This document shows, piece by piece, positions 78-20,000 of a stretch of 20,000 bases of DNA. The notes beneath the pieces were generated by a model. That model searched no databases, was not told the origin of the DNA, and saw nothing but the letters and a program-made list of their open reading frames with translations. Numbering within the stretch: the stretch's first letter is position 1; each line of letters opens with the position of its first letter. Made by a program: the position numbers and the translations under genes. Origin of the DNA: Lobosporangium transversale (lineage: Eukaryota); assembly GCF_002105155.1 (NCBI RefSeq), contig NW_019028996.1, positions 726,915-746,914 of the forward strand, given 5' to 3'.

Positions 78-272
78 TGCAAGCGAAATCACTATAATAA
101 TTTTGTGCAACATTGTATTTCGCCCATATTTCTAGAGCATTCCTTGCAACAGGATATTAACTAGTATAAATAGGTCTACTTTTCTATCTAGTTCTGTAGC
201 ATGGTTCCCCCTGAATAAAGATACCTTTATTGCACCCTTAGATCCCCCTAGAACACTACCTTGACTTTTGCA
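78..272 (+). repeat. 5' LTR (195 bp)
   Basis: TGCAAGCG...TTTTGCA with TATAAATA and AATAAA motifs; 5 substitutions versus the 3' LTR by manual comparison. Confidence 0.96.
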
Positions 273-273
273 T

Positions 274-286
274 TGGTAGCAAAGGA
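274..286 (+). promoter_or_regulatory. Primer binding site, probably tRNA-iMet
   Basis: TGGTAGCAAAGGA directly after the 5' LTR; complementary to the ...GCUACCA 3' end of eukaryotic initiator Met tRNA (Ty1/Ty3 PBS also begins TGGTAGC). Confidence 0.75.
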
Positions 287-339
287 AACCACGACCACCC
301 CCAGAGAACTACAATTACCATTGAATTTCACCCCTCGCC

Positions 340-1260
340 ATGGAACACTTGAATAACGCCCTTTCGTCCATCGATCTTCCTCTGAACATTCGCGAAGCCA
401 TAGCTACTGCTTTTAATCAGGCCCTCTCTACTGCTAAAGTCAACGAAGCCGCTGAGAATGACCTAGCCAGAACCCTCGCCACGGTCCTAAAGCCACAGAA
501 GCCTACGCCTTACGAAGGAGCTATTAACGCTGTTGCAGCCTTAAACTTTGTCGACAGCCTGGAGGAGTATTACACTATTGTCACACTCACGCCATCCAAA
601 TGGGTTCGATACGCTGTCCTCAGTCTCAATGGCGAAGCCAAGGCATGGTGGAGAGATTCCGGGTTGAATCTCGATACACCTTGGGCTGACTTCCGTAAAG
701 CATTCCTCCGTCAGTTCACCCCTCCAGATTCTGCGAATGCAGCTCGCCGAGCGTTGGATAAACTTCGTCAGGGAAGGATGAGTGTGGCAGAATATACGAG
801 CAAGTTTAGAAGCCACCTACGTCTGGCTACAAATCTCGACAAAGACTCTGCTTTGCAAAAATACATGCTAGGCCTTGAGCCCGAAACAAGCAAGCAGGTA
901 AGACTTAGACAGCCAGAGACGTTGGACGATGCCATTGAGCAGGCGACCATTGTCCACAGTATTCTACATCCCATCGATGCCACCCCTGTATCCGCTACCC
1001 CGAACGCCTTATCACCCCATCATGAGAATAATTCTGGCCCTACACCAATGGATCTCGATAACATGAGAATGTTGGTTGCCAACCTGTACACCTCTCTCCA
1101 TCAGCAACGACCAAACAGAAACCACTCCAAGCCAAGCTCGCTACCCAAGCTCACAGCAGCTGAACGAGAACGTTGCGTTCGTGAGGGGCGTTGTTTCAGA
1201 TGCCGGAACCGAGGTCATAGAGCCTTTGTGCACAAATATAACATCCATGCCCCTTTCTGA
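340..1260 (+). CDS. gag: Gag (retrotransposon gag domain plus zinc knuckle)
   Basis: LNGEAKAWW...LRQGRMSVAEYTSKF capsid-like motifs, GPTPMDLD, and CFRCRNRGH knuckle whose last Cys is in the next frame. Confidence 0.92.
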   Translation: MEHLNNALSSIDLPLNIREAIATAFNQALSTAKVNEAAENDLARTLATVLKPQKPTPYEGAINAVAALNFVDSLEEYYTIVTLTPSKWVRYAVLSLNGEAKAWWRDSGLNLDTPWADFRKAFLRQFTPPDSANAARRALDKLRQGRMSVAEYTSKFRSHLRLATNLDKDSALQKYMLGLEPETSKQVRLRQPETLDDAIEQATIVHSILHPIDATPVSATPNALSPHHENNSGPTPMDLDNMRMLVANLYTSLHQQRPNRNHSKPSSLPKLTAAERERCVREGRCFRCRNRGHRAFVHKYNIHAPF

Positions 1261-2226
1261 TCACTCTATTGCTCCCACTGCATCTACTTCCTTACATCTA
1301 CTCTCTAAGTATTCACCTCATCCTGATCCCCATTCCCCTACTCATTCCTCATTGCTAAAAAACAATCCCCTCTCCGACCCTATTTTCCCCTCCACTGATC
1401 CTTTCACTGTTTCCACTTCACTCACTTCCACTCATTCATCTACCCCTAGTTCATCCAATCGCCACTCCCATTGTCGTAACGAAATTCGCCTTCAATCCTT
1501 CAGCCTTACCTATGACAAACATAAAAACTCTCGCCGACTCCTTACTTTCATTGGAGCAGTGAATGGTCGACCTGCGCGCATTCTTGTAGATGGAGGGGCC
1601 GAAGGCAATGTCATAAGTTCCTCTTTCTGCGAGAACACACATGTTCCGCTAATTGAGGGTAGACCCATTCCTGTCATTCTTCCCAACGGTACCGAGACAA
1701 TTGCTCAGCACACAGCCACGTTCACCCTCGCCCGCAACGCGTATCAGGATAAAATCAACGCCATTGTTTATCCTCTATCCAAATACGACCTAATTTTGGG
1801 TAAACCATGGCTGACGGATATCAACCCTCGCATCAATTGGCGAACAAATGATCTGCATTTTGAATACCAAGGTACCCCGGTCTTGTGGCCTTGCACTGGC
1901 ATCGACAGGAAGCCTAGACAGCGATCTTCCGTCATATCTGCTCTTAACTTCCTTACCGTTGCCTCGGAACCTGATGCCTCTGTATTCCTCGCCCAAGTTC
2001 GAGTTCCAGTACCTGTCTCTAGCAGTAGTTCTGAACTACCGGACTCTATCAAGCAAATCGTTCAAGTCGAATTCCCTGATGTCTTTCCTACAACGCTTCC
2101 TGATGGCCTTCCCCCTGACAGAGGTGATAGCATGCGTATAGAGACTGACCCTTATGCTGACCCACCTGTCCGACCTGTCATCAGATTGTCGATCGCTGAG
2201 CTTGATGAACTGAAGAAGCAGCTAAC
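1229..2226 (+). CDS. pol: Pol N-terminal part: aspartic protease and linker
   Basis: RILVDGGAEGNVIS catalytic motif and YDLILGKPWL; reading ends at the solo-LTR insertion (ELKKQL|). Confidence 0.88.
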
Positions 2227-2420
2227 TGCAAAAGTCAAGGTAGTGTTCTAGGGGGATCTAAGGGTGCAATAAAGGTATCTTTATTCAGGGGGAACTATGC
2301 TACAGAACTAGATAGAAAGTAGACCTATTTATACTAGTTAATATCCTGTTGCAAGGAATGCTCTAGAAATATGGGCGAAATACTATGTTGCACATAATTA
2401 TTAGAGTGATTTCGCTTGCA
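2227..2420 (-). mobile_element. Solo LTR of the same Gypsy family, inserted antisense in pol
   Basis: Reverse complement of the LTR, flanked by 5-bp TSD CTAAC (2222-2226, 2421-2425). Removing it restores ...[12 protein letters not shown] in frame. Confidence 0.95.
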
Positions 2421-5144
2421 CTAACTGATCTTTTACAAAAAGGATTAATCTCACCGAGCACCTCACCATACGGTGCTCCAGTCCTCTTTGTGAAGAAAAA
2501 GGATGGCTCGCTTCGAATGTGTGTTGATTATCGGGGCCTGAACAAGATCACAAAGAAAAACAGGTACCCCTTACCACGGATCGATGAATTGATCGACAGA
2601 TTCAGAACAGCTAAATGTTTTACCAAGCTGGATCTACTCTCGGGCTATCATCAAATGCGTGTCCATCCTGATGATAAACACAAGACCGCGTTCCGAACTC
2701 GCTATGGCCACTACGAGTTTAACGTCGTACCTTTCGGTCTTACAAATGCACCTGCAGCGTTCTCGACTATGATGCGTAACGTACTTGATCCACTTCTTGA
2801 TAAATGTGTTGTTGTGTATCTCGATGATATTTTAATTTACTCCGATAACGAGAAAGATCACTTAGAGCACATCCGAAAAGTACTCTCCCTCTTGCGTCAA
2901 GCTGGGCTTTATTGTAAATTATCCAAGTATTCCTTCATGCAGGAAGAGACTGAGTTCCTAGGCCATGTCATATCCAAGGATGGACTCAAGACGAATGGCG
3001 GACTTGTCAAGGCAATAAGGGAATGGCCAGTACCAACAACCCAACGACATGTGATGCAATTCCTTGGTTTGACTAATTTTTACCATCAGTACATTTCTCA
3101 TTACGCTGATATTGCTCTTCCCCTCACACAATTGTTAGGCTGCAATAAGGAATTCCACTGGGGAAAATCTCAACAAGACGCCTTTGAGACTTTGAAAAGA
3201 GCAGTGAGCTCAGCACCAGTTCTTAGGATATTCGATCCTGCCCTCTCTACAGCAGTCGAAACAGACGCTTCAGGCTTTGCAATTGGTGCTGTCTTGTTCC
3301 AGACGGACCAAAATGGTGAATCACGACCAGTAGCTTTTACTTCACGCAAGCTCAACCCAGCGGAACGCAACTATCCTACACACGAACAAGAACTGCTGGC
3401 TGTGGTGCATGCTCTGAAGACATGGCGATACTACCTTGATGGTTCTCACTTTGTCGTTTATACCGACCATGCCACTCTACAACATTTTCCTAGCCAGCCG
3501 AACTTGACTCGCAGACAAGCAAGATGGATGGAGTTGCTTCAAGAGTATGATTTCGTATTCAAGTATAAACCTGGTAAAGATAACGTCGTCCCTGATGCTC
3601 TTTCACGAAGACCGGACCTCAAGGACTTGGAGGCTACACCTACTACTTTGAACTCCTTGGTTATCAATCTAGACCCTGGCATTCGAAAACAACTAGCCAG
3701 TTGCTACCTACACGATCCAATTCTAGGTCCCCTCGTGCATCAGTATAAGGATGCCTCTACCCCGGATCGTTACTTCGTGGTAGATGGTCTACTCTGGATC
3801 AACGCTGGACAAGGCCCTCGCCTCTGCATACCCAAGGACGACGGACTCCGTTCACAACTCTTGCATGACGCTCACGACGCTCCTATATCAGGCCACTTGG
3901 GACTCGATAAAACGTACAGTAGCATGCGACGAACATATTTTTGGCCACGCATGGCGAGGGATATAAAAAAATACATTGCTTCCTGTGAGCAATGCCAGCG
4001 TAACAAGCCTTCACTAAAGCCTCCTGCAGGGCTTTTCCAACCTTTGGCAATTCCAAGCCAACGATGGGATACTGTAACAATGGACTTCATTGTCAAGCTT
4101 CCGAAGACAGCCAGAGGTTTTGACGCGATTACGGTCTTTGTGGACAAACTGTCCAAGCAAGTTCATTTCTGCGCTAGCCGAACTACCGACACTGCCTCTG
4201 ATGTTGCACGACTCTTTTTCGACAATGTTTTTAGACTGCACGGCATGCCTCGGACAATTGTGTCAGATAGAGATTCACGTTTCACCGGCAAGTTCTGGAC
4301 AACGTTGATGAAGCTCATGGGCACCAAACTTAACATGTCTACTGCCTTCCTTCCACAATCAGACGGACAAACAGAGCGCGCCAACAGAACATTAGAAGAA
4401 ATGCTCCGCTCTTACATATCGTACAAGCAAAACGACTGGGATCTTTTACTGCCTATGATGGAGTTCGCATACAACAACTCTGTCAATCCTACGACAGGCT
4501 TCTCCCCATTCTTTCTGAACTATGGTCACCATCCACTAGTCCCTGGATCTCTTTTAAAGCCACCTGATACCAATGTTCCGGCTGTCAGTGATTTTGTTCG
4601 AACCCAGTCGATGAATTTGGCGCTAGCTCAGGATGCCATCATCGAAGCGCAGAATAGGCAAAAGGCCCAAGCGGACAAAACTCGCAGGCCTGCTACGTTT
4701 GCTGTGGGTGACATGGTGCTCTTAAGCTCGGAAAACATCTCTGTCGCGGGACATAAAAATAGGCCGTCGCAGAAACTGGAACCTGAGTACATAGGCCCTT
4801 ACAAGATCATTTCGAAGGTCAATGAAAATGCCTACAAGCTGGAACTACCGCCTGACATGCATCAACATCCAGTCTTTAATGCCGATCTGCTTCGCCCCTA
4901 TATTGAGTCACCTCGTGAATTCGGCGACCGCTTACCACCACGCCCTGCCCCCGAGCTTGTAGATGGAGAAGAGGAGTATGAAGTCGACAAAATCATTGAC
5001 TTCAAAATGTTTGGCAAAACTCCTAAGTGGCTCGTTCTTTGGAAAGGCTATCCATTAGATGAAGCCACTTGGGAAACAAAATCTTCGCTCGCAAACGCTA
5101 AAGAGGCGCTTGCCGTCTTTGAGGCTTCAAGAAAAACAAGATAA
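2421..5144 (+). CDS. pol: Pol C-terminal part: RT, RNase H, integrase, chromodomain
   Basis: YLDDILIYS (RT); [10 protein letters not shown] (RNase H); HDAPISGH...CEQC (HHCC); MDF/SDRD/TERAN (DDE); GPY motif; EYEVDKII...LVLWKGY...TWE chromodomain. Confidence 0.96.
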
Positions 5145-5157
5145 TAGGTTTCTTCAT

Positions 5158-5168
5158 GACGGGAAGGA
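5158..5168 (+). promoter_or_regulatory. Polypurine tract
   Basis: GACGGGAAGGA immediately before the 3' LTR. Confidence 0.7.
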
Positions 5169-5363
5169 TGCAAGCGAAATCACTATAATAATTTTGTGCA
5201 ACATAGTATTTCGCCCATATTTGTAGAGCATTCCTTGCAACAGGATATTAACTAGTATAAATAGGTCTACTTTTCTATCTAGTTCTGTAGCATGGTTCCC
5301 CCTGAATAAAGACACCTTTATTACACCCTTAGATCCCCCTAGAACACTACCTTGATTTTTGCA
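5169..5363 (+). repeat. 3' LTR (195 bp)
   Basis: Direct repeat of 78-272, followed by TSD CGCGT. Confidence 0.96.
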
Positions 5364-5816
5364 CGCGTCTCCTAGTTTTCTAGCTCCGTGAATAGCTCCA
5401 AGGATTCTAGAAGAGCTATAAACCAATAACCAAGACTTATAGTGCCAAGGAACCTTGCAATAAGATTGCACCAGATATCTTCCTCGGATCCTGTGTATTA
5501 AGTTAACTCAACACTTGAAGTTCCGCATATGGTAAAAGTCCTTAGGAAATATTTGAGTAAGCTTTATTTAGAGTTCTTGAAGCGCGTCTCCGCTTCAGTC
5601 AAACAAGTATAAATATGATAGATTTGTAACATAGTAAACCTCAGTCTGCAATAAAACTATTCTTGAATCTCCTAAGCTCATTTTTGTTCCTAAATCACTT
5701 ACCTTCTCTTGCAATTGTCCTGTCAGTCCTTGACGGTAATTGCACGCGAGGTTGATACGGGTATATTTAGATCCATTCTGGCAGTTCAAGAATACATCAG
5801 ATCGAGCAGTGCTCCT

Positions 5817-6086
5817 ATTCGAACCATTCGAATCGAATTCGAATAGATATCAGGATTCGAATGCTATTCGAACCGCTCGAATGATTCGAGCCATTCGAAC
5901 CGTTCGAATGATTCGAACCATTCGAACCATTCGACATTCGAACCATTCGACATTCGAACCGTTCGAATGATTCGAACCATTCGAACCATTCGACATTCGA
6001 ACCGTTCGAATGATTCGAACCATTCGACCCTCGAATCATTCGAACCATTCGAACCATTCGACACTCGAACCATTCGAACCATTCGA
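5817..6086. repeat. hAT left subterminal repeat array (CCATTCGAA-like units, TTCGAA palindromes)
   Basis: Many tandem and inverted TTCGAA-containing 7-9-mers; likely transposase binding sites by analogy to Ac/Hermes. Confidence 0.85.
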
Positions 6087-6269
6087 TACACGATAGGAAA
6101 TGGTAATTCTAAACTTGTGTTTGTAGTTTTCATTATGTTTCATCTCCTGCCTTATTTCTCTTTCCTTCTTTTTCCTCTTTTGCCTTTCTTCCTGTGGTTC
6201 CCCGAAATTTAATCAAATAAAAGACTACCCCTTTTAACTTATTCATGCATGATTTGGTTTGAACTTGTT

Positions 6270-9517: not shown

Positions 9518-9527
9518 TTGAGACATA

Positions 9528-11155
9528 CACTATCATGCAAAACTGATTCAATAATTCATTCCCATGTGCATTTCTTTTTTTCATTCCTAGAAACCGTATA
9601 TGCATACACCACTCATACTTTGGTTTAATAAAGCTCCCGTCTTCTTCTACGTCCTAGTGATGCGTTGTGACATTAGCTTGTCTCATTTGAATAGCTAATG
9701 ACTTTTTTGTTCATGCAGGTCATTGAATCAGTTTCACATGTGGTCTAAAATGTTGCCCATGGCAACTTTTGGACGTCATTTAATGCCAGTAAAAAAAGGA
9801 CTTTTCTCTCTTTCCTTTATGAACACTTGCTTAACTCTTAACTATACCTTCACAGAATATGAGACCCACTCCACAAAGGAAAGTCAACGAAGCCAGGAGG
9901 TTAATGATGGGAGGCATGTCTACTAGAGAAACTGCTGCTAGTGTTGGTATATCAATAGCGACGGCCACCAGGATCTATGCACATAATAAGGAGTACATGC
10001 CAGTCAATAAAGGCGGTCGACCAAGGAAAGTACCTAGAGGTATCATGCAGTATCTTAAGGTGAACATGAAACGAGGTACACTCAAGTCTGCAGTTGAGGC
10101 CACCGCCAGAGCCAACCAGCTCATACCAGCGGCTGTTTCTGAGACCACCGTTAGACGACGGCTCAAGGAGTTAGGATTGACAGCAAAGAGGCGTGTACAT
10201 AAGCCAGCTTTACGTCGACGACATATTAAAGCTCGTTTGCATTTTATCAAAAAGTATAAGGAATGGACTCTGGAAGATTGGAAAAAGGTTATTTGGTCAG
10301 ATGAATCGAAAATAAACCGAATCTGCTCTGATGGCGTGCAGTGGATCTGGGGCGACAATCCGGGACGCCTCACTCGCAGGTCGGTGCAAGGCACTGTCAA
10401 GTTTGGGGGTGGTAATGTTAAAGTGTGGTCATGCTTCTCATGGCACGGACCTGGATACATTGCAAAGATTGACAATAATATGGACGCACAACTTTACATC
10501 AAACTACTGCAGGAGGATCTACAGATGTCGCTTGGTGACTGGGGCCTAACTAAAAGCGATATCGTCTTTCAGCACGACAATGACTCGAAGCACACGGCGA
10601 AGATTGTTAGGAAGTATTTGGAGTCAGTACATCTGACAGAAGAGGAAGGTACACTTCTAGAGTGGCCAGCACAATCCCCTGACCTCAACCCTATTGAACA
10701 CATGTGGGCAGAATTGGATAGGCGGCTCTCTAGGTATCCGGAGCGAGCTAAGAGCTGTGATGAACTATGGGAGCGAATATCGGTTGAATGGTACAGGATC
10801 CCAGTGGACTTCTGCCGCAAACTCATCATAGATATCCATAAGAGACTCCAAGCTGTCAGTGATGCCCATGGTTGGAATACTATCTATTGATGTAAGGTTA
10901 TGGCTCACAAAAGAATAAAGATCTTTGGCCACCGAATGGGCACATGTGAAACTGATTCAATGACCTGAATGAACAAAAAAGCCATTAGCTATTCAAATGA
11001 GACAAGCTAATGTCACAACGCATCACTATGACGTAGAAGAAGACGGGAGCTTTATTAAACCAAAGTATGAGTGGTGTATGCATATACGGTTTCTAGGAAT
11101 GAAAAAAAGAAATGCACATGGGAATGAATTATTGAATCAGTTTTGCATGATAGTG
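9528..11155 (+). mobile_element. Tc1/mariner DNA transposon with 215-bp TIRs
   Basis: TIRs 9528-9742 and 10941-11155 (few mismatches); TA TSD at 9526-9527 and 11156-11157. Confidence 0.95.
9859..10890 (+). CDS. Tc1-like transposase (intact, 343 aa)
   Basis: N-terminal HTH, GRPRK, WSDESK, QHDNDSKH, WPAQSPDLNPIEHMW. Confidence 0.95.
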   Translation: MRPTPQRKVNEARRLMMGGMSTRETAASVGISIATATRIYAHNKEYMPVNKGGRPRKVPRGIMQYLKVNMKRGTLKSAVEATARANQLIPAAVSETTVRRRLKELGLTAKRRVHKPALRRRHIKARLHFIKKYKEWTLEDWKKVIWSDESKINRICSDGVQWIWGDNPGRLTRRSVQGTVKFGGGNVKVWSCFSWHGPGYIAKIDNNMDAQLYIKLLQEDLQMSLGDWGLTKSDIVFQHDNDSKHTAKIVRKYLESVHLTEEEGTLLEWPAQSPDLNPIEHMWAELDRRLSRYPERAKSCDELWERISVEWYRIPVDFCRKLIIDIHKRLQAVSDAHGWNTIY

Positions 11156-11159
11156 TATA

Positions 11160-11506
11160 CAGTGCTCCTATTCGAACCTTTCGAATCGAATTTCACTGAT
11201 ATCGAATTCGATTCGAATGAGGTAAGCTCAAATTCGATTCGAATTCGATTAGATAACAAAATTCGAATGCTATTCGAATGGTTCGAATGATTCGAGCGAA
11301 CTATTGGCACAATAGTAAATGATAATTTTAAACTTTTTTTTTTATTTTTTTTTGATTGGGTGTAAAGTACAAGGACCATACTTTCGCTACGCGTAACCAG
11401 AGGCCCTATTCGAACCATTCGAACCATTCGAATCGAACCAGGATATGGCTTATTTGAATCGATTCGAATTTATCACGATTCGAATTCGAATCGAATAGGA
11501 GCACTG
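11160..11506 (+). mobile_element. Non-autonomous hAT element (MITE-like, 347 bp), same TIRs as the host hAT
   Basis: CAGTGCTCCTATTCGA...TCGAATAGGAGCACTG. 8-bp TSD GACATATA: right copy 11507-11514, left copy split by the Tc1 (GACATA 9522-9527 plus TA 11158-11159). Confidence 0.9.
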
Positions 11507-11640
11507 GACATATATAGTTTTCTAAATAAGAGTAAAAGTATCTCTCAAAACTAGCAAATCAAATAAAACTTTTTACAATACAACTCTGAACCAGGGTTAT
11601 GAACTATATCACCCCTACCACTTCACAATTCAAACCACCA

Positions 11641-11807
11641 CGCTCCTATTCGAATCATTCGAACCATTCGACACTCGAACCATTCGAACCATTCGAACCA
11701 TTCGACACTCGAACTATTCGAACCATTCGAACCATTGGAATCGAACCAGGATATGGCTTATTCGAAGCTATTCGAATTCGAACCGTTCGATTCGAATAGG
11801 AGCACTG
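11641..11807. repeat. hAT right subterminal repeat array and TIR
   Basis: CCATTCGAA-type repeats ending in TTCGAATAGGAGCACTG; GAACCAGGATATGGCTTAT is shared with the MITE right end. Confidence 0.85.
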
Positions 11808-13694
11808 AGTAGGTGTAGCCTCCGAGTCCTTGAGGTCCGGTCTTCGTGAAAGAGCATCAGGGACGACGTTATCTTTACCAGGTTTATACTTGAATACGAA
11901 ATCATACTCTTGAAGCAACTCCATCCATCTTGCTTGTCTGCGAGTCAAGTTCGGCTGGCTAGGAAAATGTTGTAGAGTGGCATGGTCGGTATAAACGACA
12001 AAGTGAGAACCATCAAGGTAGTATCGCCATGTCTTCAGAGCATGCACCACAGCCAGCAGTTCTTGTTCGTGTGTAGGATAGTTGCGTTCCGCTGGGTTGA
12101 GCTTGCGTGAAGTAAAAGCTACTGGTCGTGATTCACCATTTTGGTCCGTCTGGAACAAGACAGCACCAATTGCAAAGCCTGAAGCGTCTGTTTCGACTGC
12201 TGTAGAGAGGGCAGGATCGAATATCCTAAGAACTGGTGCTGAGCTCACTGCTCTTTTCAAAGTCTCAAAGGCGTCTTGTTGAGATTTTCCCCAGTGGAAT
12301 TCCTTATTGCAGCCTAACAATTGTGTGAGGGGAAGAGCAATATCAGCGTAATGAGAAATGTACTGATGGTAAAAATTAGTCAAACCAAGGAATTGCATCA
12401 CATGTCGTTGGGTTGTTGGTACTGGCCATTCCCTTATTGCCTTGACAAGTCCGCCATTCGTCTTGAGTCCATCCTTGGATATGACATGGCCTAGGAACTC
12501 AGTCTCTTCCTGCATGAAGGAATACTTGGATAATTTACAATAAAGCCCAGCTTGACGCAAGAGGGAGAGTACTTTTCGGATGTGCTCTAAGTGATCTTTC
12601 TCGTTATCGGAGTAAATTAAAATATCATCGAGATACACAACAACACATTTATCAAGAAGTGGATCAAGTACGTTACGCATCATAGTCGAGAACGCTGCAG
12701 GTGCATTTGTAAGACCGAAAGGTACGACGTTAAACTCGTAGTGGCCATAGCGAGTTCGGAACGCGGTCTTGTGTTTATCATCAGGATGGACACGCATTTG
12801 ATGATAGCCCGAGAGTAGATCCAGCTTGGTAAAACATTTAGCTGTTCTGAATCTGTCGATCAATTCATCGATCCGTGGTAAGGGGTACCTGTTTTTCTTT
12901 GTGATCTTGTTCAGGCCCCGATAATCAACACACATTCGAAGCGAGCCATCCTTTTTCTTCACAAAGAGGACTGGAGCACCGTATGGTGAGGTGCTCGGTG
13001 AGATTAATCCTTTTTGTAAAAGATCAGTTAGTGCAAGCGAAATCACTCTAATAATTATGTGCAACATAGTATTTCGCCCATATTTCTAGAGCATTCCTTG
13101 CAACAGGATATTAACTAGTATAAATAGGTCTACTTTCTATCTAGTTCTGTAGCATAGTTCCCCTGAATAAAGATACCTTTATTGCACCCTTAGATCCCCC
13201 TAGAACACTACCTTGACTTTTGCAGTTAGCTGCTTCTTCAGTTCATCAAGCTCAGCGATCGACAATCTGATGACAGGTCGGACAGGTGGGTCAGCATAAG
13301 GGTCAGTCTCTATACGCATGCTATCACCTCTGTCAGGGGGAAGGCCATCAGGAAGCGTTGTAGGAAAGACATCAGGGAATTCGACTTGAACGATTTGCTT
13401 GATAGAGTCCGGTAGTTCAGAACTACTGCTAGAGACAGGTACTGGAACTCGAACTTGGGCGAGGAATACAGAGGCATCAGGTTCCGAGGCAACGGTAAGG
13501 AAGTTAAGAGCAGATATGACGGAAGATCGCTGTCTAGGCTTCCTGTCGATGCCAGTGCAAGGCCACAAGACCGGGGTACCTTGGTATTCAAAATGCAGAT
13601 CATTTGTTCGCCAATTGATGCGAGGGTTGATATCCGTCAGCCATGGTTTACCCAAAATTAGGTCGTATTTGGATAGAGGATAAACAATGGCGTT
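11808..13694 (-). pseudogene. pol: Inverted duplicate of Gypsy pol segment 1757-3644 (end of protease, RT, RNase H)
   Basis: Reverse complement of 1757-3644. Same protein apart from L>S near the end, and the same solo-LTR insertion with a 1-bp deletion. Confidence 0.95.
13032..13224 (+). mobile_element. Duplicated copy of the solo LTR (193 bp)
   Basis: TGCAAGCG...TTTTGCA flanked by GTTAG TSD, at the same site in pol as 2227-2420. Confidence 0.93.
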
Positions 13695-13695
13695 T

Positions 13696-14140
13696 GATAA
13701 GTAGGATGGGTTTTTTTGTGAAAAAGTGGAAAAAGTGACTGAGAGTGAGAAAGAAGACTGCGGGACAAGTGCTTGTTTCGATCTTTTCTCTTCAGCCTTG
13801 TCTTCTTTTTATACTTTTTTCACGCCTCTCGGACTCTCGGGAGAGAGGGTGAACGGTAACCCAAAAAGGAATCATTATCCAAATCGGGTCTCATCCGGAA
13901 ACTCCTAGATTGTTTCAGATTGAGTCAGTTATGACGTAAGATCTAAAATTAATCTAAGTATAGATTACAAATAATTTATCCGAACGGTTAGACTAAAAAA
14001 GGAAGGTCTAAGTCCGAAAAAATCCTAGGATATATGTATCATTTCCGTGGTACGCGTCGACCTAGCAAACAGGTTTATTTGGAGCCAGCAAACCAGTTAT
14101 TTGTGGCTTTCTACTCCTTAACTAGGGTCACGTGACAAAA
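13696..14140 (-). repeat. Penelope-like terminal repeat (pLTR) copy 1, 5'-truncated element
   Basis: About 445-bp unit essentially identical at 14284-14728, 17863-18307 and 18455-18900. Confidence 0.88.
13750..13808 (-). ncRNA. Type I hammerhead ribozyme, copy 1
   Basis: Minus strand: AAAGAAGAC-AA-GG-CUGAAGA-GAAAAGAUC-GAAA-CAAG-CA-CUUG-UC/CC-GCA-GUCUUCUUU. Complete core, three stems, GUC cleavage triplet (predicted cut between 13764 and 13763). Confidence 0.85.
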
Positions 14141-14283
14141 TTTATTTTTAGGTATCTATTTTTAGGGTCTATTTTTAGGGTTTTTTAGGGTTTTTTAGGG
14201 TTTTTTAGGGTTTTTAGGGTTTTTTAGGGTTTTTTAGGGTTTTTAGGGTTTTTTAGGGTTTTTTAGGGTTTTTTAGGGTTTTT
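14141..14283 (+). repeat. Telomere-like repeat tract, mostly pure T5-6AGGG
   Basis: About 10 tandem TTTTT(T)AGGG units after two degenerate units. Confidence 0.85.
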
Positions 14284-14337
14284 GATAAGTAGGATGGGTT
14301 TTTTTGTGAAAAAGTGGAAAAAGTGACTGAGAGTGAG

Positions 14338-14396
14338 AAAGAAGACTGCGGGACAAGTGCTTGTTTCGATCTTTTCTCTTCAGCCTTGTCTTCTTT
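14338..14396 (-). ncRNA. Type I hammerhead ribozyme, copy 2
   Basis: Identical to 13750-13808. Confidence 0.85.
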
Positions 14397-14728
14397 TTAT
14401 ACTTTTTTCACGCCTCTCGGACTCTCGGGAGAGAGGGTGAACGGTAACCCAAAAAGGAATCATTATCCAAATCGGGTCTCATCCGGAAACTCCTAGATTG
14501 TTTCAGATTGAGTCAGTTATGACGTAAGATCTAAAATTAATCTAAGTATAGATTACAAATAATTTATCCGAACGGTTAGACTAAAAAAGGAAGGTCTAAG
14601 TCCGAAAAAATCCTAGGATATATGTATCATTTCCGTGGTACGCGTCGACCTAGCAAACAGGTTTATTTGGAGCCAGCAAACCAGTTATTTGTGGCTTTCT
14701 ACTCCTTAACTAGGGTCACGTGACAAAA

Positions 14729-14837
14729 TTTATTTTTAGGTATCTATTTTTAGGGTCTATTTTTAGGGTTCTATTTTAGGGTTTTTTTAGGGTTATTTTT
14801 AGGGTTTTCTTTTAGGGTTATTTTTAGGGTTAGGGTC
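14729..14837 (+). repeat. Element-encoded degenerate telomere-like tract
   Basis: TTATTTTTAGGG/TCTATTTTTAGGG variants; same sequence at 18901-19009. Confidence 0.8.
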
Positions 14838-14991
14838 AAGGAGGGTCAGCTCTGGCCTATACCATGAACCTGAGAAAACTCCTAAAAAATCTAAAGAAAA
14901 CTTACTAAGTCTAAAAAACCGGACCTATTTTGTCGGGGATGAGGGCTAGTTATAATATAAGATACAGAAGAGATCTCATTGAACTAGTCAT

Positions 14992-16497
14992 CTACAATCG
15001 ACTCCTTATTGGGGCGGATTGGAGAATCTTTTTATTATAGGTGTTCAACTGGTTGCGCAGGTTGGAGCCTTTATAAATTATCCATGTGGTTTGTGTATTC
15101 TCATAACGGGCAGGTTTGAGGGTATGGATATCTCGTAGAATCATACGTCCAAACTGTTCAAGTTTGTCACGTCCAGGGATGTTATGGAGGAACATTTTTT
15201 TGATAATAGTATCATTTTTCTGAGACGAGGGTGCCGGGTACAAAAGAGTATTCCGTTCATCGTATGAGTGTAATCTGAGTTGATTGTTGATTACATGTGA
15301 GGGGTAGTTTCTATTAAGAAGATGTTGGGCAAATTGTGCTGTGGCATGGGTGTGGAAAGAAGACTGACTAGAGTTTCTAATTAGTCTTTGGTTTTCACCA
15401 TTAATCCAGTTAAAAACATATTTCCTAGGGTAGTATGTATCTGGATCAGTGTATAGGTGTTTATTAACGGGTTTGTCGAAAGGAGCAATAGTAAATCGGG
15501 TTGGACTAGTATTGTTATCGACAGAAATAAGAAGGTCGAGCATAACTACTTGTTGACCATTGTTACCATGGTCGATAGTGATATTAAGACTTTGACAAGA
15601 GGCATAAATCTGATGAAGTTTAATGTCAATGTATGGTTTCAAAAGATTGAATGTCTCTTTAGACCAGGGAAGGTTATCATGTTTGGTAGTTCTGATTATG
15701 GCAAAGCCATCATCTATATACCGGAACAGGGTGATGTCAAAGAAATCGAGTTTATAGAAAAACATTGGGGAATTAGTGTCAACTGGAAGGTTGTCAGGAA
15801 AAACTCCATGGAATTGTTGTTGTTTCTCTACGCAGCATGCAAAGAGGCGGGCTATGGTGGGTGCCATGGGAGTTCCCATAGCTAAGCCTTTGACTTGTCT
15901 GTAATTATTTGTAAGGTCAGAGACAAGGCAGTTCTTATTAACCCATTCTGCGAGTTTCAGACATATTTGGATTTCATAATTGTAAGAATGATTGCAGAAG
16001 TAGTGTAGTATGGTTTTTCTGGCTTCTTCAAAGTCGATGTTACCATACATGTTGATGACGTCGAAAGCTGCTAATGAGTAATGGCAGTAAGGATCAAAGT
16101 CAAAATTTTCTAGATAACGTATTAGTGTGGGGGTGTCGGGAAGATCTCTAGGGAACTCATTAAGTAGAGGGCGCAGGTTTCTATCGACAAACTGACTAAT
16201 AGTGTGTGTTATCCAAGGGAAAGAGGGGACTATAGGTCTAGCACCGGGTGGTGACTTATGTATTTTAGGTAAAAGATACATAACTGGGACAGTATAGAAG
16301 TTAGGATTGGTTCTAACATTATCTCTTATTAGTTTAGCTTCTGAGAGTAATTTATTTTTAATTCTAAGAGGACTAAGATTGACTATAGAAAAGAGTGAGT
16401 TTATCATATTGTCAATGGAGAACGAAGGGCACGGGACATAACAGGAAGTATCTGTTAGAAGTTTCGTAGTCTGGGATGTATACCAGTCTAGGTCCAT
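14992..16497 (-). CDS. Penelope-like reverse transcriptase, no endonuclease domain
   Basis: LPKIHK...ARPIV, AFDVINMYGNI, YRQVKGLAMGTPMAP, RYIDDGF, FDKPVN. Ends after NLRNQL with no GIY-YIG. Its N-terminus (LNKGVNF, ADK) lies upstream across frameshifts. Confidence 0.92.
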   Translation of the reverse strand: MDLDWYTSQTTKLLTDTSCYVPCPSFSIDNMINSLFSIVNLSPLRIKNKLLSEAKLIRDNVRTNPNFYTVPVMYLLPKIHKSPPGARPIVPSFPWITHTISQFVDRNLRPLLNEFPRDLPDTPTLIRYLENFDFDPYCHYSLAAFDVINMYGNIDFEEARKTILHYFCNHSYNYEIQICLKLAEWVNKNCLVSDLTNNYRQVKGLAMGTPMAPTIARLFACCVEKQQQFHGVFPDNLPVDTNSPMFFYKLDFFDITLFRYIDDGFAIIRTTKHDNLPWSKETFNLLKPYIDIKLHQIYASCQSLNITIDHGNNGQQVVMLDLLISVDNNTSPTRFTIAPFDKPVNKHLYTDPDTYYPRKYVFNWINGENQRLIRNSSQSSFHTHATAQFAQHLLNRNYPSHVINNQLRLHSYDERNTLLYPAPSSQKNDTIIKKMFLHNIPGRDKLEQFGRMILRDIHTLKPARYENTQTTWIIYKGSNLRNQLNTYNKKILQSAPIRSRL

Positions 16498-16811
16498 AAT
16501 AGTGAGTCCTAAGTTTTTTATCAGCAGGGAATGATAATTTATTCGAGGTCATTAGATTTCTGTAGGATTTTTTTTTTTTTTTTATTAATTATGGTTTGTA
16601 GCATCGAACAGAACATTAGCTAGATTAATATCTAGTTTATTAATATTCCTACAAAGTTGGTTACGCAATTTCTTTAGTTCTGAGCTCAGAACAACATAGT
16701 TGGGAGGTTTATGTATATTGAAATTGACTCCTTTATTTAAGACTTGAAGAATATCATGGGGGATGGATTGTACGGAAGACATATTGTTGACTCCGACAAA
16801 ATCATGTAAAT

Positions 16812-17838
16812 CTACTTTTTTTGTTTCTGAGGGGATGGGGCTTTTTTCACGGGGCCTTTTCCTTTCTTTACATGGGTGGTTTTCTTGGAGGACGTTGGGG
16901 GACCACCTTTCTTCTTGTCTTTCTTCGCCATCGATGGGCCTTTTGGTCCTTTGTATTTGTTGGTGTCGTTCTGTCGACGTGATGGCTTGGGTTTGCTTGG
17001 CTTCTTCTTCGAGGCGTCCTTCTTGGTATTCTAGAGGGAAAGTAGAGTTGATCTTAGAATAGATTATATTTAATCGTGGAGCAAACCAAAGGGAAACAAT
17101 TATCTTGAATACCTTTAATCCAAGATTTAATTGCTGGAATTCTGCAGTGGCTCGTAATACTTGCACTTGAGCAGAAAACTCAATAGCAGTGGCACGAATC
17201 AGCTTGTAGGTGAAGTCTTTACCCAGATTATTCAGATGAGAATTGTTTTCAACGGCCACAAGGGCAGATGAAAGGGTGTCCGCTAGCTGTCTGGGGAGGG
17301 TGTCATTGAGTTCACTTTGGCATTGTTGGATGATATTTGCTTTGTCAGCTTTAATGGCCGATACTAACAAATTGTCAAACGAAGTGCTAAGTGTAGCAAG
17401 GACGTCCTTTGACAGGGTAACACGGTTATTGTTGACAGTAAGATGTCCCCAATAGCCTAGTTGTGTCTTAGCGTTGACTTCACGCAGAATCTTCTGAGCC
17501 ATTCGGATTTTATCCAAAAGAATGGCCGCCTTATTGACAAATTTGCTTAAGATGTCTGCGGCAACCCTGTCAGTCATCGTTCCCTTTTTGAAAGAGGGAA
17601 GATAGGAACCAGGGTTCAGAGAGGTGTCACTATTCCCAATATGATTATTGAGACGAGCGACGAGCTGCTCGAGGGTGGGAAGGTCTGCCGGTGCAGTCCC
17701 TCCTCCCATCTCGGCATCGGCATCGATCATAGCCTGACCTGGAACTTGTTGACCTGGGGTGACTTGGAAGACATCCTGGTTTCCACGGGCAGAGCTTGAC
17801 GATGAGGAGGGGCCGGGGGCAGCGTGAGTATTGACCAT
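16812..17838 (-). CDS. PLE ORF1 (predicted spliced, 314 aa, helical with Lys-rich tail); unspliced frame continues to 16585
   Basis: ATG at 17838 just downstream of the pLTR. Predicted intron 17112-17031 (GTATTC...CTAAG...CTCTAG) gives NTKKDASKKKPSKPK...KQKK-stop. Confidence 0.7.
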
Positions 17839-17916
17839 CTTGAGAGGAACTTGAGGGTTTTTGATAAGTAGGATGGGTTTTTTTGTGAAAAAGTGGAAAA
17901 AGTGACTGAGAGTGAG

Positions 17917-17975
17917 AAAGAAGACTGCGGGACAAGTGCTTGTTTCGATCTTTTCTCTTCAGCCTTGTCTTCTTT
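17917..17975 (-). ncRNA. Type I hammerhead ribozyme, copy 3 (in the ORF1 leader)
   Basis: Identical to copy 1; predicted cut about 90 nt upstream of the ORF1 ATG. Confidence 0.85.
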
Positions 17976-18307
17976 TTATACTTTTTTCACGCCTCTCGGA
18001 CTCTCGGGAGAGAGGGTGAACGGTAACCCAAAAAGGAATCATTATCCAAATCGGGTCTCATCCGGAAACTCCTAGATTGTTTCAGATTGAGTCAGTTATG
18101 ACGTAAGATCTAAAATTAATCTAAGTATAGATTACAAATAATTTATCCGAACGGTTAGACTAAAAAAGGAAGGTCTAAGTCCGAAAAAATCCTAGGATAT
18201 ATGTATCATTTCCGTGGTACGCGTCGACCTAGCAAACAGGTTTATTTGGAGCCAGCAAACCAGTTATTTGTGGCTTTCTACTCCTTAACTAGGGTCACGT
18301 GACAAAA

Positions 18308-18454
18308 TTTATTTTTAGGTATCTATTTTTAGGGTCTATTTTTAGGGTTCTATTTTAGGGTTTTTTTTAGGGTTATTTTTTAGGGTTTTTTTTAGGGTTA
18401 TTTTTAGGGTATAGGGTTTTTTTATTTTTAGGGTTATTTTTAGGGTTATTTTAG
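18308..18454 (+). repeat. Telomere-like tract (TTATTTTTAGGG-rich) between tandem elements
   Basis: Starts like 14729-14837, then diverges into additional TTATTTTTAGGG units. Confidence 0.8.
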
Positions 18455-20000
18455 GATAAGTAGGATGGGTTTTTTTTGTGAAAAAGTGGAAAAAGTGACT
18501 GAGAGTGAGAAAGAAGACTGCGGGACAAGTGCTTGTTTCGATCTTTTCTCTTCAGCCTTGTCTTCTTTTTATACTTTTTTCACGCCTCTCGGACTCTCGG
18601 GAGAGAGGGTGAACGGTAACCCAAAAAGGAATCATTATCCAAATCGGGTCTCATCCGGAAACTCCTAGATTGTTTCAGATTGAGTCAGTTATGACGTAAG
18701 ATCTAAAATTAATCTAAGTATAGATTACAAATAATTTATCCGAACGGTTAGACTAAAAAAGGAAGGTCTAAGTCCGAAAAAATCCTAGGATATATGTATC
18801 ATTTCCGTGGTACGCGTCGACCTAGCAAACAGGTTTATTTGGAGCCAGCAAACCAGTTATTTGTGGCTTTCTACTCCTTAACTAGGGTCACGTGACAAAA
18901 TTTATTTTTAGGTATCTATTTTTAGGGTCTATTTTTAGGGTTCTATTTTAGGGTTTTTTTAGGGTTATTTTTAGGGTTTTCTTTTAGGGTTATTTTTAGG
19001 GTTAGGGTCAAGGAGGGTCAGCTCTGGCCTATACCATGAACCTGAGAAAACTCCTAAAAAATCTAAAGAAAACTTACTAAGTCTAAAAAACCGGACCTAT
19101 TTTGTCGGGGATGAGGGCTAGTTATAATATAAGATACAGAAGAGATCTCATTGAACTAGTCATCTACAATCGACTCCTTATTGGGGCGGATTGGAGAATC
19201 TTTTTATTATAGGTGTTCAACTGGTTGCGCAGGTTGGAGCCTTTATAAATTATCCATGTGGTTTGTGTATTCTCATAACGGGCAGGTTTGAGGGTATGGA
19301 TATCTCGTAGAATCATACGTCCAAACTGTTCAAGTTTGTCACGTCCAGGGATGTTATGGAGGAACATTTTTTTGATAATAGTATCATTTTTCTGAGACGA
19401 GGGTGCCGGGTACAAAAGAGTATTCCGTTCATCGTATGAGTGTAATCTGAGTTGATTGTTGATTACATGTGAGGGGTAGTTTCTATTAAGAAGATGTTGG
19501 GCAAATTGTGCTGTGGCATGGGTGTGGAAAGAAGACTGACTAGAGTTTCTAATTAGTCTTTGGTTTTCACCATTAATCCAGTTAAAAACATATTTCCTAG
19601 GGTAGTATGTATCTGGATCAGTGTATAGGTGTTTATTAACGGGTTTGTCGAAAGGAGCAATAGTAAATCGGGTTGGACTAGTATTGTTATCGACAGAAAT
19701 AAGAAGGTCGAGCATAACTACTTGTTGACCATTGTTACCATGGTCGATAGTGATATTAAGACTTTGACAAGAGGCATAAATCTGATGAAGTTTAATGTCA
19801 ATGTATGGTTTCAAAAGATTGAATGTCTCTTTAGACCAGGGAAGGTTATCATGTTTGGTAGTTCTGATTATGGCAAAGCCATCATCTATATACCGGAACA
19901 GGGTGATGTCAAAGAAATCGAGTTTATAGAAAAACATTGGGGAATTAGTGTCAACTGGAAGGTTGTCAGGAAAAACTCCATGGAATTGTTGTTGTTTCTC
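18455..20000 (-). mobile_element. Next tandem copy of the Penelope-like element (pLTR, 3' UTR, RT C-terminal half; runs off window)
   Basis: Repeats 14284-15828 at about +4172; RT C-terminus 19164-20000 encodes the same protein. Confidence 0.92.
18510..18568 (-). ncRNA. Type I hammerhead ribozyme, copy 4
   Basis: Identical to copy 1. Confidence 0.85.

Follow-up and report, generated by a model that had tools for sequence, protein, structure and literature searches.

The minus strand of the 20,000-nucleotide stretch of DNA analysed here (the window) carries four copies of a type I hammerhead ribozyme in the end repeats, or pseudo-long terminal repeats (pLTRs), of an endonuclease-less Penelope-like element (PLE), a retroelement with its own reverse transcriptase (RT). 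The pairing of hammerheads with telomere-type PLEs has already been published, and the locus adds a further member to it. From the conservation of the motif and from the positions at which inserts of the element end, we propose, with a probability of about one half, that the conserved hammerhead cuts slowly and only in part, uncut RNA serving as the template that is copied onto the chromosome end and cut RNA as the messenger.

Position and architecture of the hammerhead motif

When both strands of the 20-kb window were scanned with a descriptor, four hammerheads and no others came up, each of them on the minus strand; the predicted cuts follow positions 13764, 14352, 17931 and 18524. The first (13750–13808, cut between 13764 and 13763) lies in an insert made of a pLTR only; the second (14338–14396, cut 14352/14351) and the third (17917–17975, cut 17931/17930) occupy the 3' and the 5' pLTR of a full element; and the fourth (18510–18568, cut 18524/18523) belongs to the 3' pLTR of the next element toward the chromosome tip. 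Tandem motifs are spaced ~590 nt apart. A preliminary description of this DNA had placed four minus-strand hammerheads at these coordinates, with a 3' cleavage product beginning CCGCAG at 17930, and had assigned them to type I and to PLE pLTRs; the scan recovered every part that it listed and the same predicted cut site, and the structure of the element agrees with the assignment. The four 59-nt stretches are identical in sequence and, since they sit in a repeat of ~490–510 nt that is present four times, they constitute one duplicated motif and not independent observations. In dinucleotide-shuffled windows, the loose form of the descriptor found 0.015 cores per 20 kb (3 of 200 shuffles with one core), and the tight form found no hammerhead core in any of 200.

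In the copy read from 17975 to 17917, the core CUGAAGA (17962–17956) is followed by GAAA (17946–17943) and by U16.1 and C17 at 17932 and 17931, in agreement with the CUGANGA...GAAA...UH core, three helices and open-ended helix I of a type I hammerhead. The outer part of helix I pairs 17975–17967 with 17925–17917, and its proximal part consists of 2 bp (GG at 17964–17963 with CC at 17930–17929). Helix II is likewise of 2 bp (GA/UC closing AAAGA), and the helix III region reads CAAG-CA-CUUG. A further distal helix (17885–17990, minus strand, pairing 17990–17980 with 17894–17885) is predicted around the hammerhead and also in the close relative L002, a prediction that involves two sequences. The Rfam search proposed in the preliminary description was negative for hammerhead families, both at E ≤ 1 over the whole window and at E ≤ 10 over 17850–18650; Rfam membership is not what defines the hammerhead class. 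The term minimal, earlier applied to the motif, does not fit it in the published sense, which is a hammerhead without helix III (PMC4209133), as the motif here has one.

An endonuclease-less, telomere-type Penelope-like element

The element reads, on the minus strand, as the repeat with its hammerhead, a short leader, ORF1, the RT frame, a 3' untranslated region (UTR), a degenerate T(n)AGGG block and the repeat again. The full copy with both pLTRs (14275–18367) measures 4093 nt, or 1.14 times the 3579-nt cut-to-cut unit. ORF1 (16812–17838) opens with an AUG at 17838, and the RT frame (14992–16548) can be aligned with relatives over the DKN, QxxGxAMG and YIDD motifs and as far as the thumb region. 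It ends at 14992, and no GIY-YIG endonuclease follows; in two close relatives (L001 and L002) the frame likewise closes past the thumb/linker. A AAAAACCCU stretch on the minus strand (17854–17862) is complementary to the G-rich telomere-like strand and is a likely priming site. The element's own degenerate telomere-like block (14730–14832, plus strand, and again 18902–19004) lies between the 3' UTR and the pLTR, and it occupies the same position in L001 and L002. With pLTRs, partial tandem copies and a hammerhead followed by a reverse-complement telomeric stretch, the element has the makeup of a telomere-type PLE and, judged by its sequence, is an endonuclease-less member of the Coprina/Athena kind, whose host is probably a fungus. 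A Pfam search gave no family for the RT or ORF1 of the window element or of L001, and only a sub-threshold domain of unknown function for L002; an Atlas search with ORF1 exon 1 returned no usable match.

The copies succeed one another on the minus strand in a single direction. The pLTR-only insert (13693–14182) has its 3' end on a Ty3/gypsy fragment, with a 2-nt overlap, and its 5' end in telomere-like repeats, the latter being a 10-nt T-rich AGGG repeat in ~11.4 copies (14172–14283, plus strand), probably host telomere repeats added in the interval between two insertions. Degenerate telomere-like repeats (18309–18452, plus strand) separate the full element from the next one toward the tip (18455–20000), which ends at the window edge and which, from 18524 to 20000, is identical to 14352–15828 (0 mismatches in 1477 nt). 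The repeats at 18309–18452 resemble the element's own 12–13-nt degenerate units in a different order, unlike the regular 10-nt array at 14172–14283, and possibly stem from repeated re-priming by the RT or from recombination. The G-rich repeat strand runs from left to right and the 3' end of the element points left; the repeats and this orientation are those to be expected if a chromosome tip lies beyond 20000.

The window copy is probably damaged or mis-assembled at 16514–16601 (minus strand), in a family that is itself probably intact; the segment has in-frame stops and an A-run, and public DNA runs differ there: run X1 has 130 letters for 82, and runs X2 and X3 lack one base and diverge. The DKN motif of the window copy is disturbed by one extra base that is missing from the public runs. 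Low-depth contigs of X1–X3 also contain a second, diverged subfamily in the same organism, with 38 differences in 285 nt (15922–16206) and 29 in 313 nt (16216–16529). Contig depth in these runs is greater over the 3' than over the 5' part of the element, an observation left unused because depth is no copy number.

Conservation of the motif among relatives

A scan of metagenome contigs confirmed 319 loci, of which 80 were kept, and 240 RT relatives were found at E ≤ 0.001, 120 of them listed. Many of the 120 listed carry RT-type Pfam domains, and the named relatives among those listed come from several fungi, at 24–28% identity. The close relatives L001 and L002 (~52% amino acid identity in the RT) both bear a matching hammerhead ahead of ORF1. 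A quick RT tree was built with 112 of 117 rows, leaving out P0031–P0120 unless named or GIY-YIG-bearing and containing no reference Coprina or Athena sequence; in it, the window element, L001, L002 and P0001 form a four-row clade of their own (SH-aLRT 100) whose deeper position the tree does not settle, and the named RT proteins of Pyricularia, Pochonia, Podosphaera and Armillaria fall in a clade that excludes the window element. Very long RT-containing frames were observed at two other loci, L056 (326–5239, 1638 aa) and L060 (173–5434, 1754 aa).

Among the three elements, the hammerhead is identical at 53/59, 55/61 and 57/61 positions (90–93%), with its core unchanged, as the preliminary description had expected of homologous elements. 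For comparison, four-fold RT sites are identical at 37/95 and 47/94 positions (39–50%), and the upstream repeat at 179/341, against a shuffled mean of 48%. These figures point to strong purifying selection on the motif. All 8 variable columns belong to the 18 (of 61) that lie outside both the base pairs and the core, although columns from three sequences are not independent events; the positions that vary are N7 (A/U), a loop II base, an insertion in loop III, position 17 (C/A) and the internal loop. In the hammerhead core, N7 is free and position 17 tolerates anything but G.

The same pattern bears on whether the motif instead acts as a folded or protein-binding handle by which AAAAACCCU is offered to the RT, with negligible cutting in vivo. 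Such a handle would fit the intact cleavage site in all inserts, an active fold that is not the predicted minimum, and the statement of a review that cleavage is possibly auxiliary (PMC6431247). A purely structural role, however, would not need an invariant catalytic core in which N7 and position 17 vary only as cleavage tolerates, and we consider this explanation highly improbable.

Across the 80 loci, hammerheads were found on the sense strand in 18 cases and on the antisense strand in none, a count in which the L051 motif, inside the RT gene, is probably false and from which L002, found by reading, was missed. The sense-strand set includes forms with a long helix III in the clade of the named ascomycete proteins and, elsewhere, forms whose short helix III is fully palindromic; a long helix III is seen at L005, L007, L009, L010, L020, L030 and L052. 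At seven loci with a long helix III the cut is followed by a CCCTAA-type stretch, with an AUG after it in six, and no clear stretch of this type is present in five other loci compared with them.

Insert junctions and the template of reverse transcription

In the pLTR-only insert, the repeat meets the gypsy fragment 71 nt past the cut (13694–13693, the 2-nt overlap); at the second junction it meets the ~11.4 copies of the 10-nt repeat 77 nt past the cut; and at the third it meets the degenerate repeats ~68 nt past the cut. A fourth join, in a contig of run X7, lies 77 nt past the cut and leads onto the element's own repeat block. All four are at or inside AAAAACCCU, which extends 69–77 nt past the cut in the window, 69–77 nt in L001 and 78–86 nt in L002, and which is predicted to be mostly unpaired. 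The same layout has been described for PLEs attached to telomeres, in which folding reportedly leaves the stretch free to pair with the G-rich overhang (PMC6431247; PMC8557442).

Because the inserts end past the cut, at AAAAACCCU, the RT must start downstream of the cut and pass through it; the full insert (14275–18367) crosses the cut site twice, and the repeat-only insert reaches 419 nt upstream of it. Primed at this site, a linear 3579-nt RNA running from cut to cut would yield only ~70 nt of cDNA, and hence the template was uncut, rejoined or circular, or the RT jumped. The earlier proposal that unit-length transcripts are the copied product is therefore at odds with the inserts, whose 3' ends in 3 of 3 cases lie 68–77 nt beyond the cut. 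The simplest reading is that the template was uncut RNA, which also accounts for the repeat-only insert, through priming in the 5' repeat. At 13693–13695 the innermost insert joins an internal gypsy fragment (11808–13694, an inverted copy of 1757–3644) with a 2-nt overlap and no telomere repeats, a single case which suggests that this insert healed a chromosome break.

The junctions also admit a cut-and-rejoin process, in which two hammerheads, acting as a double hammerhead or as monomers, would excise the 3579-nt unit, the ends held by helix I would be ligated, and the RT, starting from AAAAACCCU, would travel round the circle more than once and thereby duplicate the end repeats. Circles of this kind have been proposed by Cervera and De la Pena (PMC4209133), and they would agree with a full insert of 1.14 units that passes the cut site twice and with a long helix I that has a predicted distal extension. 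The ends of the L002 contig overlap, as they would in a tandem or circular unit, but ordinary tandem copies also give overlapping contig ends, and the two repeat-to-repeat joins of the window differ from each other, which argues against the copying of a small repeat circle. The remaining evidence on this process concerns helix III and is taken up below.

Past the cut, the AUG of ORF1 follows at 93 nt in the window, at 93 nt in L001 and at 103 nt in L002, with no AUG in between. This short, constant and AUG-free distance could point to a role in translation, whereby cutting or the fold lets ribosomes start on uncapped RNA just upstream of ORF1 and the presence of the motif in inserts is a by-product of its location in the repeat. 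The short helix II and the 5' UTR position do match those of chrysovirus and fusarivirus hammerheads, in which a core mutation abolished reporter translation (PMC13725137). Any promoter within the repeat would nevertheless give short leaders, and the conserved spacing is already explained by the telomere-pairing stretch between ribozyme and AUG; translation as the main selected role appears improbable.

Monomer or dimer cleavage

The preliminary description had taken the near-palindromic stem III to mean that cleavage needs two tandem copies. Every hairpin stem is an inverted repeat, however; the diagnostic feature is a loop that pairs with itself, which CA does not. Helix III comprises 4 bp (counting A15.1-U16.1) with a GCAC loop in the window and in L001, and a UGCAC loop in L002; it is not a 5-bp helix with a CA loop because a 2-nt loop cannot close, and the inserted U of L002, which breaks the fifth pair, confirms this reading. 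In the window and L001 the loop cannot pair with itself, whereas that of L002 contains the palindrome UGCA, and the letters GCAC are kept in all three elements. The motif thus lies outside the minimal dimer type, defined by a helix III that is absent or limited to 1–2 bp with a palindromic loop (PMC4209133).

Published hammerheads provide a scale for these features. The dimer-dependent axolotl motif has one helix III pair and a palindromic tetraloop, and a helix III of 2 bp with a tetraloop resembles the invertebrate motifs (PMC7229834), most of which cut efficiently as monomers (PMC7761336); for the axolotl motif with a 2-bp helix III, monomers were cleaved to only 22% and dimers to a much greater extent (PMC7229834). 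A fungal PLE hammerhead was active as a monomer at 0.16–1.97 per min (PMC4209133), and a rate of ~0.01 per min is given for viral hammerheads whose helix II is a single pair (PMC13725137). The helix III of the window hammerhead is longer than that of the invertebrate type and as long as in published monomer-active ones, which weakens the argument for a dimer, and slow monomer cleavage is to be expected because helix II has only 2 bp, a length that dimerisation leaves unchanged. By analogy with these systems, the motif is likely an active but slow type I hammerhead, expected to cut slowly as a monomer with possible help from a tandem neighbour; a requirement for the dimer is less likely than not.

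Folding energies (ViennaRNA) bear on the same question and on the cut-and-rejoin process. The isolated helix III is predicted at +0.4 kcal/mol as a hairpin and −8.5 kcal/mol as a duplex, and for a transcript of 18600–17850 the values are −133.6 kcal/mol for the double hammerhead, −131.1 for two monomers, −140.9 or −142.5 for one monomer and −154.3 for the free fold. The double hammerhead in cis is hence 2.5 kcal/mol better than two monomers, tertiary and ion terms being outside the model. Rejoining via a double hammerhead draws support from these two differences, from the conserved GCAC letters and from the far better cleavage of the axolotl motif as a dimer. On the other side, a duplex outscores a hairpin for any short stem, that of L011 included, a dimer does not lengthen helix II, and the loops of the window and L001 are not self-complementary, unlike the palindromic helix III of L021, L026, L031/L040 and L050. 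Taken with the junctions, this evidence makes cut-and-rejoin rather unlikely, yet the foremost rival of the uncut template.

The loci just named are distant PLE-like loci with a fully palindromic helix III of 6 nt (L021, at 19–53 and 4204–4238, and L026, L031, L040 and L050), and their sequences make them good candidates for true dimer-dependent forms. A downstream 'anti-ribozyme' switch was also considered and rejected, since shuffling the downstream sequence reproduced the energy gap to the active fold, which was matched in 198, 78 and 300 of 300 shuffles.

The ORF1 intron and the route to reverse transcriptase

Run X7 is probably an RNA run, its RNA status being presumed, and its contig skips 82 nt at 17031–17112 (GT..AG on the sense strand, here the minus strand), a joint missing from three DNA runs; the evidence for splicing thus consists of one contig from one study. 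The contigs of X7 leave 17884–18335, with the cut site of the third hammerhead, uncovered. The spliced ORF1 encodes 314 aa with a lysine-rich tail, and the unspliced frame reads without a stop through the intron toward the RT. In L001 and L002 the unspliced frames are continuous (1018 and 992 aa), introns are predicted at the same place (897–990, 94 nt, and 1405–1504, 100 nt), and the predicted spliced products, of 338 and 328 aa, end in the same kind of tail; the three lengths, 82, 94 and 100 nt, are each of the form 3n+1. A stop-ended segment with at least 18% lysine precedes the RT in 15 of 56 rows, several of them near-duplicates, and in 14 of these it is in the same shifted frame. On the splice seen in this one probable RNA run, the ORF1 intron is a switch between ORF1 alone and an ORF1-RT fusion. 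The stretch past the intron was also observed to be open in two frames.

No frameshift is needed to reach the RT, because in two intact relatives its frame stays open when the intron is retained. The window does show a −1 frameshift site, in which an A-run precedes the ORF1 stop and a hairpin follows, but L001 and L002 lack it, and it was discarded as a route. The meaning of intron retention in PLEs is called unknown in PMC8557442, and a literature search that did not take in the primary Athena and Coprina papers found no such intron switch described for these elements. A wider reading would place two RNA switches in each 3.6-kb unit, a slow hammerhead that separates capless messengers, in which translation starts at ORF1, from uncut templates, which attach to chromosome ends, and a frame-shifting intron by which only unspliced RNA makes RT; we hold this combination to be unlikely. 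Were it true, the RT would copy its own unspliced RNA, which would explain both the retained introns and the uncut ribozymes.

A slow-cutting model and its relation to known systems

In the model of slow and partial cutting, the 3' overhang of the chromosome end would anneal to AAAAACCCU, single-stranded beside the folded hammerhead, and prime the element's RT. Priming in the 3' repeat would give a full copy with two repeats, and priming in the 5' repeat a repeat-only insert like that at 13693–14182. Monomer cutting would be slow owing to the 2-bp helix II, and published analogues suggest that a tandem neighbour would be helpful and not required. In transcripts entering from the telomere side, the cut would release an uncapped RNA starting 92 nt ahead of the ORF1 AUG. 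The same division between cut messenger and uncut template has been proposed for fungal viruses (PMC13725137).

Several observations weigh against this model. A rejoined or circular RNA would leave an identical footprint in the DNA, and the first insert joined the gypsy fragment and not telomere repeats. The close relatives that carry the motif are two only. All 17 base pairs are invariant across the three elements, with no covariation, and for this reason conservation backs a constraint on sequence and is no proof of the fold. Lastly, the active fold lies 3.3 kcal/mol above the minimum in the 59-mer and 12–13 kcal/mol above it in a 751-nt context, as computed by ViennaRNA without tertiary or Mg2+ terms.

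The nearest published counterparts are the fungal endonuclease-less, telomere-associated PLEs of the Coprina kind, which share a type I hammerhead in both pLTRs, an RT without endonuclease, a real helix III and no evident canonical loop-loop contact; their helix III is large, whereas that of the window has 4 bp and a 4-nt loop, with 2 bp each in helix II and proximal helix I (PMC4209133). The 3' end of Athena/Terminon elements likewise presents a hammerhead and then a short telomere-complementary stretch, and these elements form head-to-tail arrays with telomere repeats between units and have an intron-bearing ORF1 ahead of the RT (PMC6431247; PMC8557442). Compared with them, as they appear in those sources, the window element is a compact 3.6-kb unit without accessory genes, its stretch is AAAAACCCU, and its RT frame is open through a retained intron in two intact relatives. 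The minimal dimer-dependent hammerheads of animal PLEs and amphibian retrozymes are also small type I motifs in tandem repeats that could form a double hammerhead, but they combine an absent helix III, or one of 1–2 bp with a palindromic loop, with a long helix II, the opposite of the window motif (PMC4209133; PMC7229834). Chrysovirus and fusarivirus 5' UTR type I hammerheads resemble it in a helix II of 1–2 bp, a usable helix III, a position just ahead of an ORF and predicted slow cutting (PMC13725137); the window motif, by contrast, is encoded in nuclear DNA within a retroelement, and the likeness is one of form. Viral contigs searched for the core pattern yielded a single match, dismissed as chance since it lies in phage coding sequence and lacks helix III.

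Other elements in the window

The remainder of the window contains a chromodomain Ty3/gypsy element, a hAT element and a Tc1 transposon (Pfam). The Ty3/gypsy element (78–5363) has two similar LTRs, and its pol frame is broken near 2251–2367, at the site of an LTR-like inverted piece that is also found in the gypsy fragment at 11808–13694. The Tc1/mariner element (9525–11158) is bounded by 218-nt inverted repeats, 99% complementary, and has an intact-looking 351-aa frame; the sole named match of its transposase among the 120 listed is from Rhizopus, at 47%. Arrays of 7–9-nt units containing TTCGAA (5807–6095 and 11160–11807) are found at the termini of a hAT-like element and of short non-autonomous pieces beginning CAGTGCTCC, and Rfam microRNA matches at 5.8–6.1 kb were rejected as artefacts of the TTCGAA repeat.

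Significance

The role of hammerheads in PLEs is still called unknown in the reviews PMC7761336 and PMC8557442. The present locus offers a compact form of the ribozyme, missed by Rfam, and its value lies in testability rather than in a new kind of system, since the pairing of hammerhead and telomere-type PLE is published. Its three junctions reveal where the RT starts relative to the cut, and the RNA-supported intron adds to its worth as a test. With a young family, identical copies and a 59-nt motif that is nearly frozen against near-saturated silent sites, the locus makes a clean test case for what the hammerhead does in these elements.

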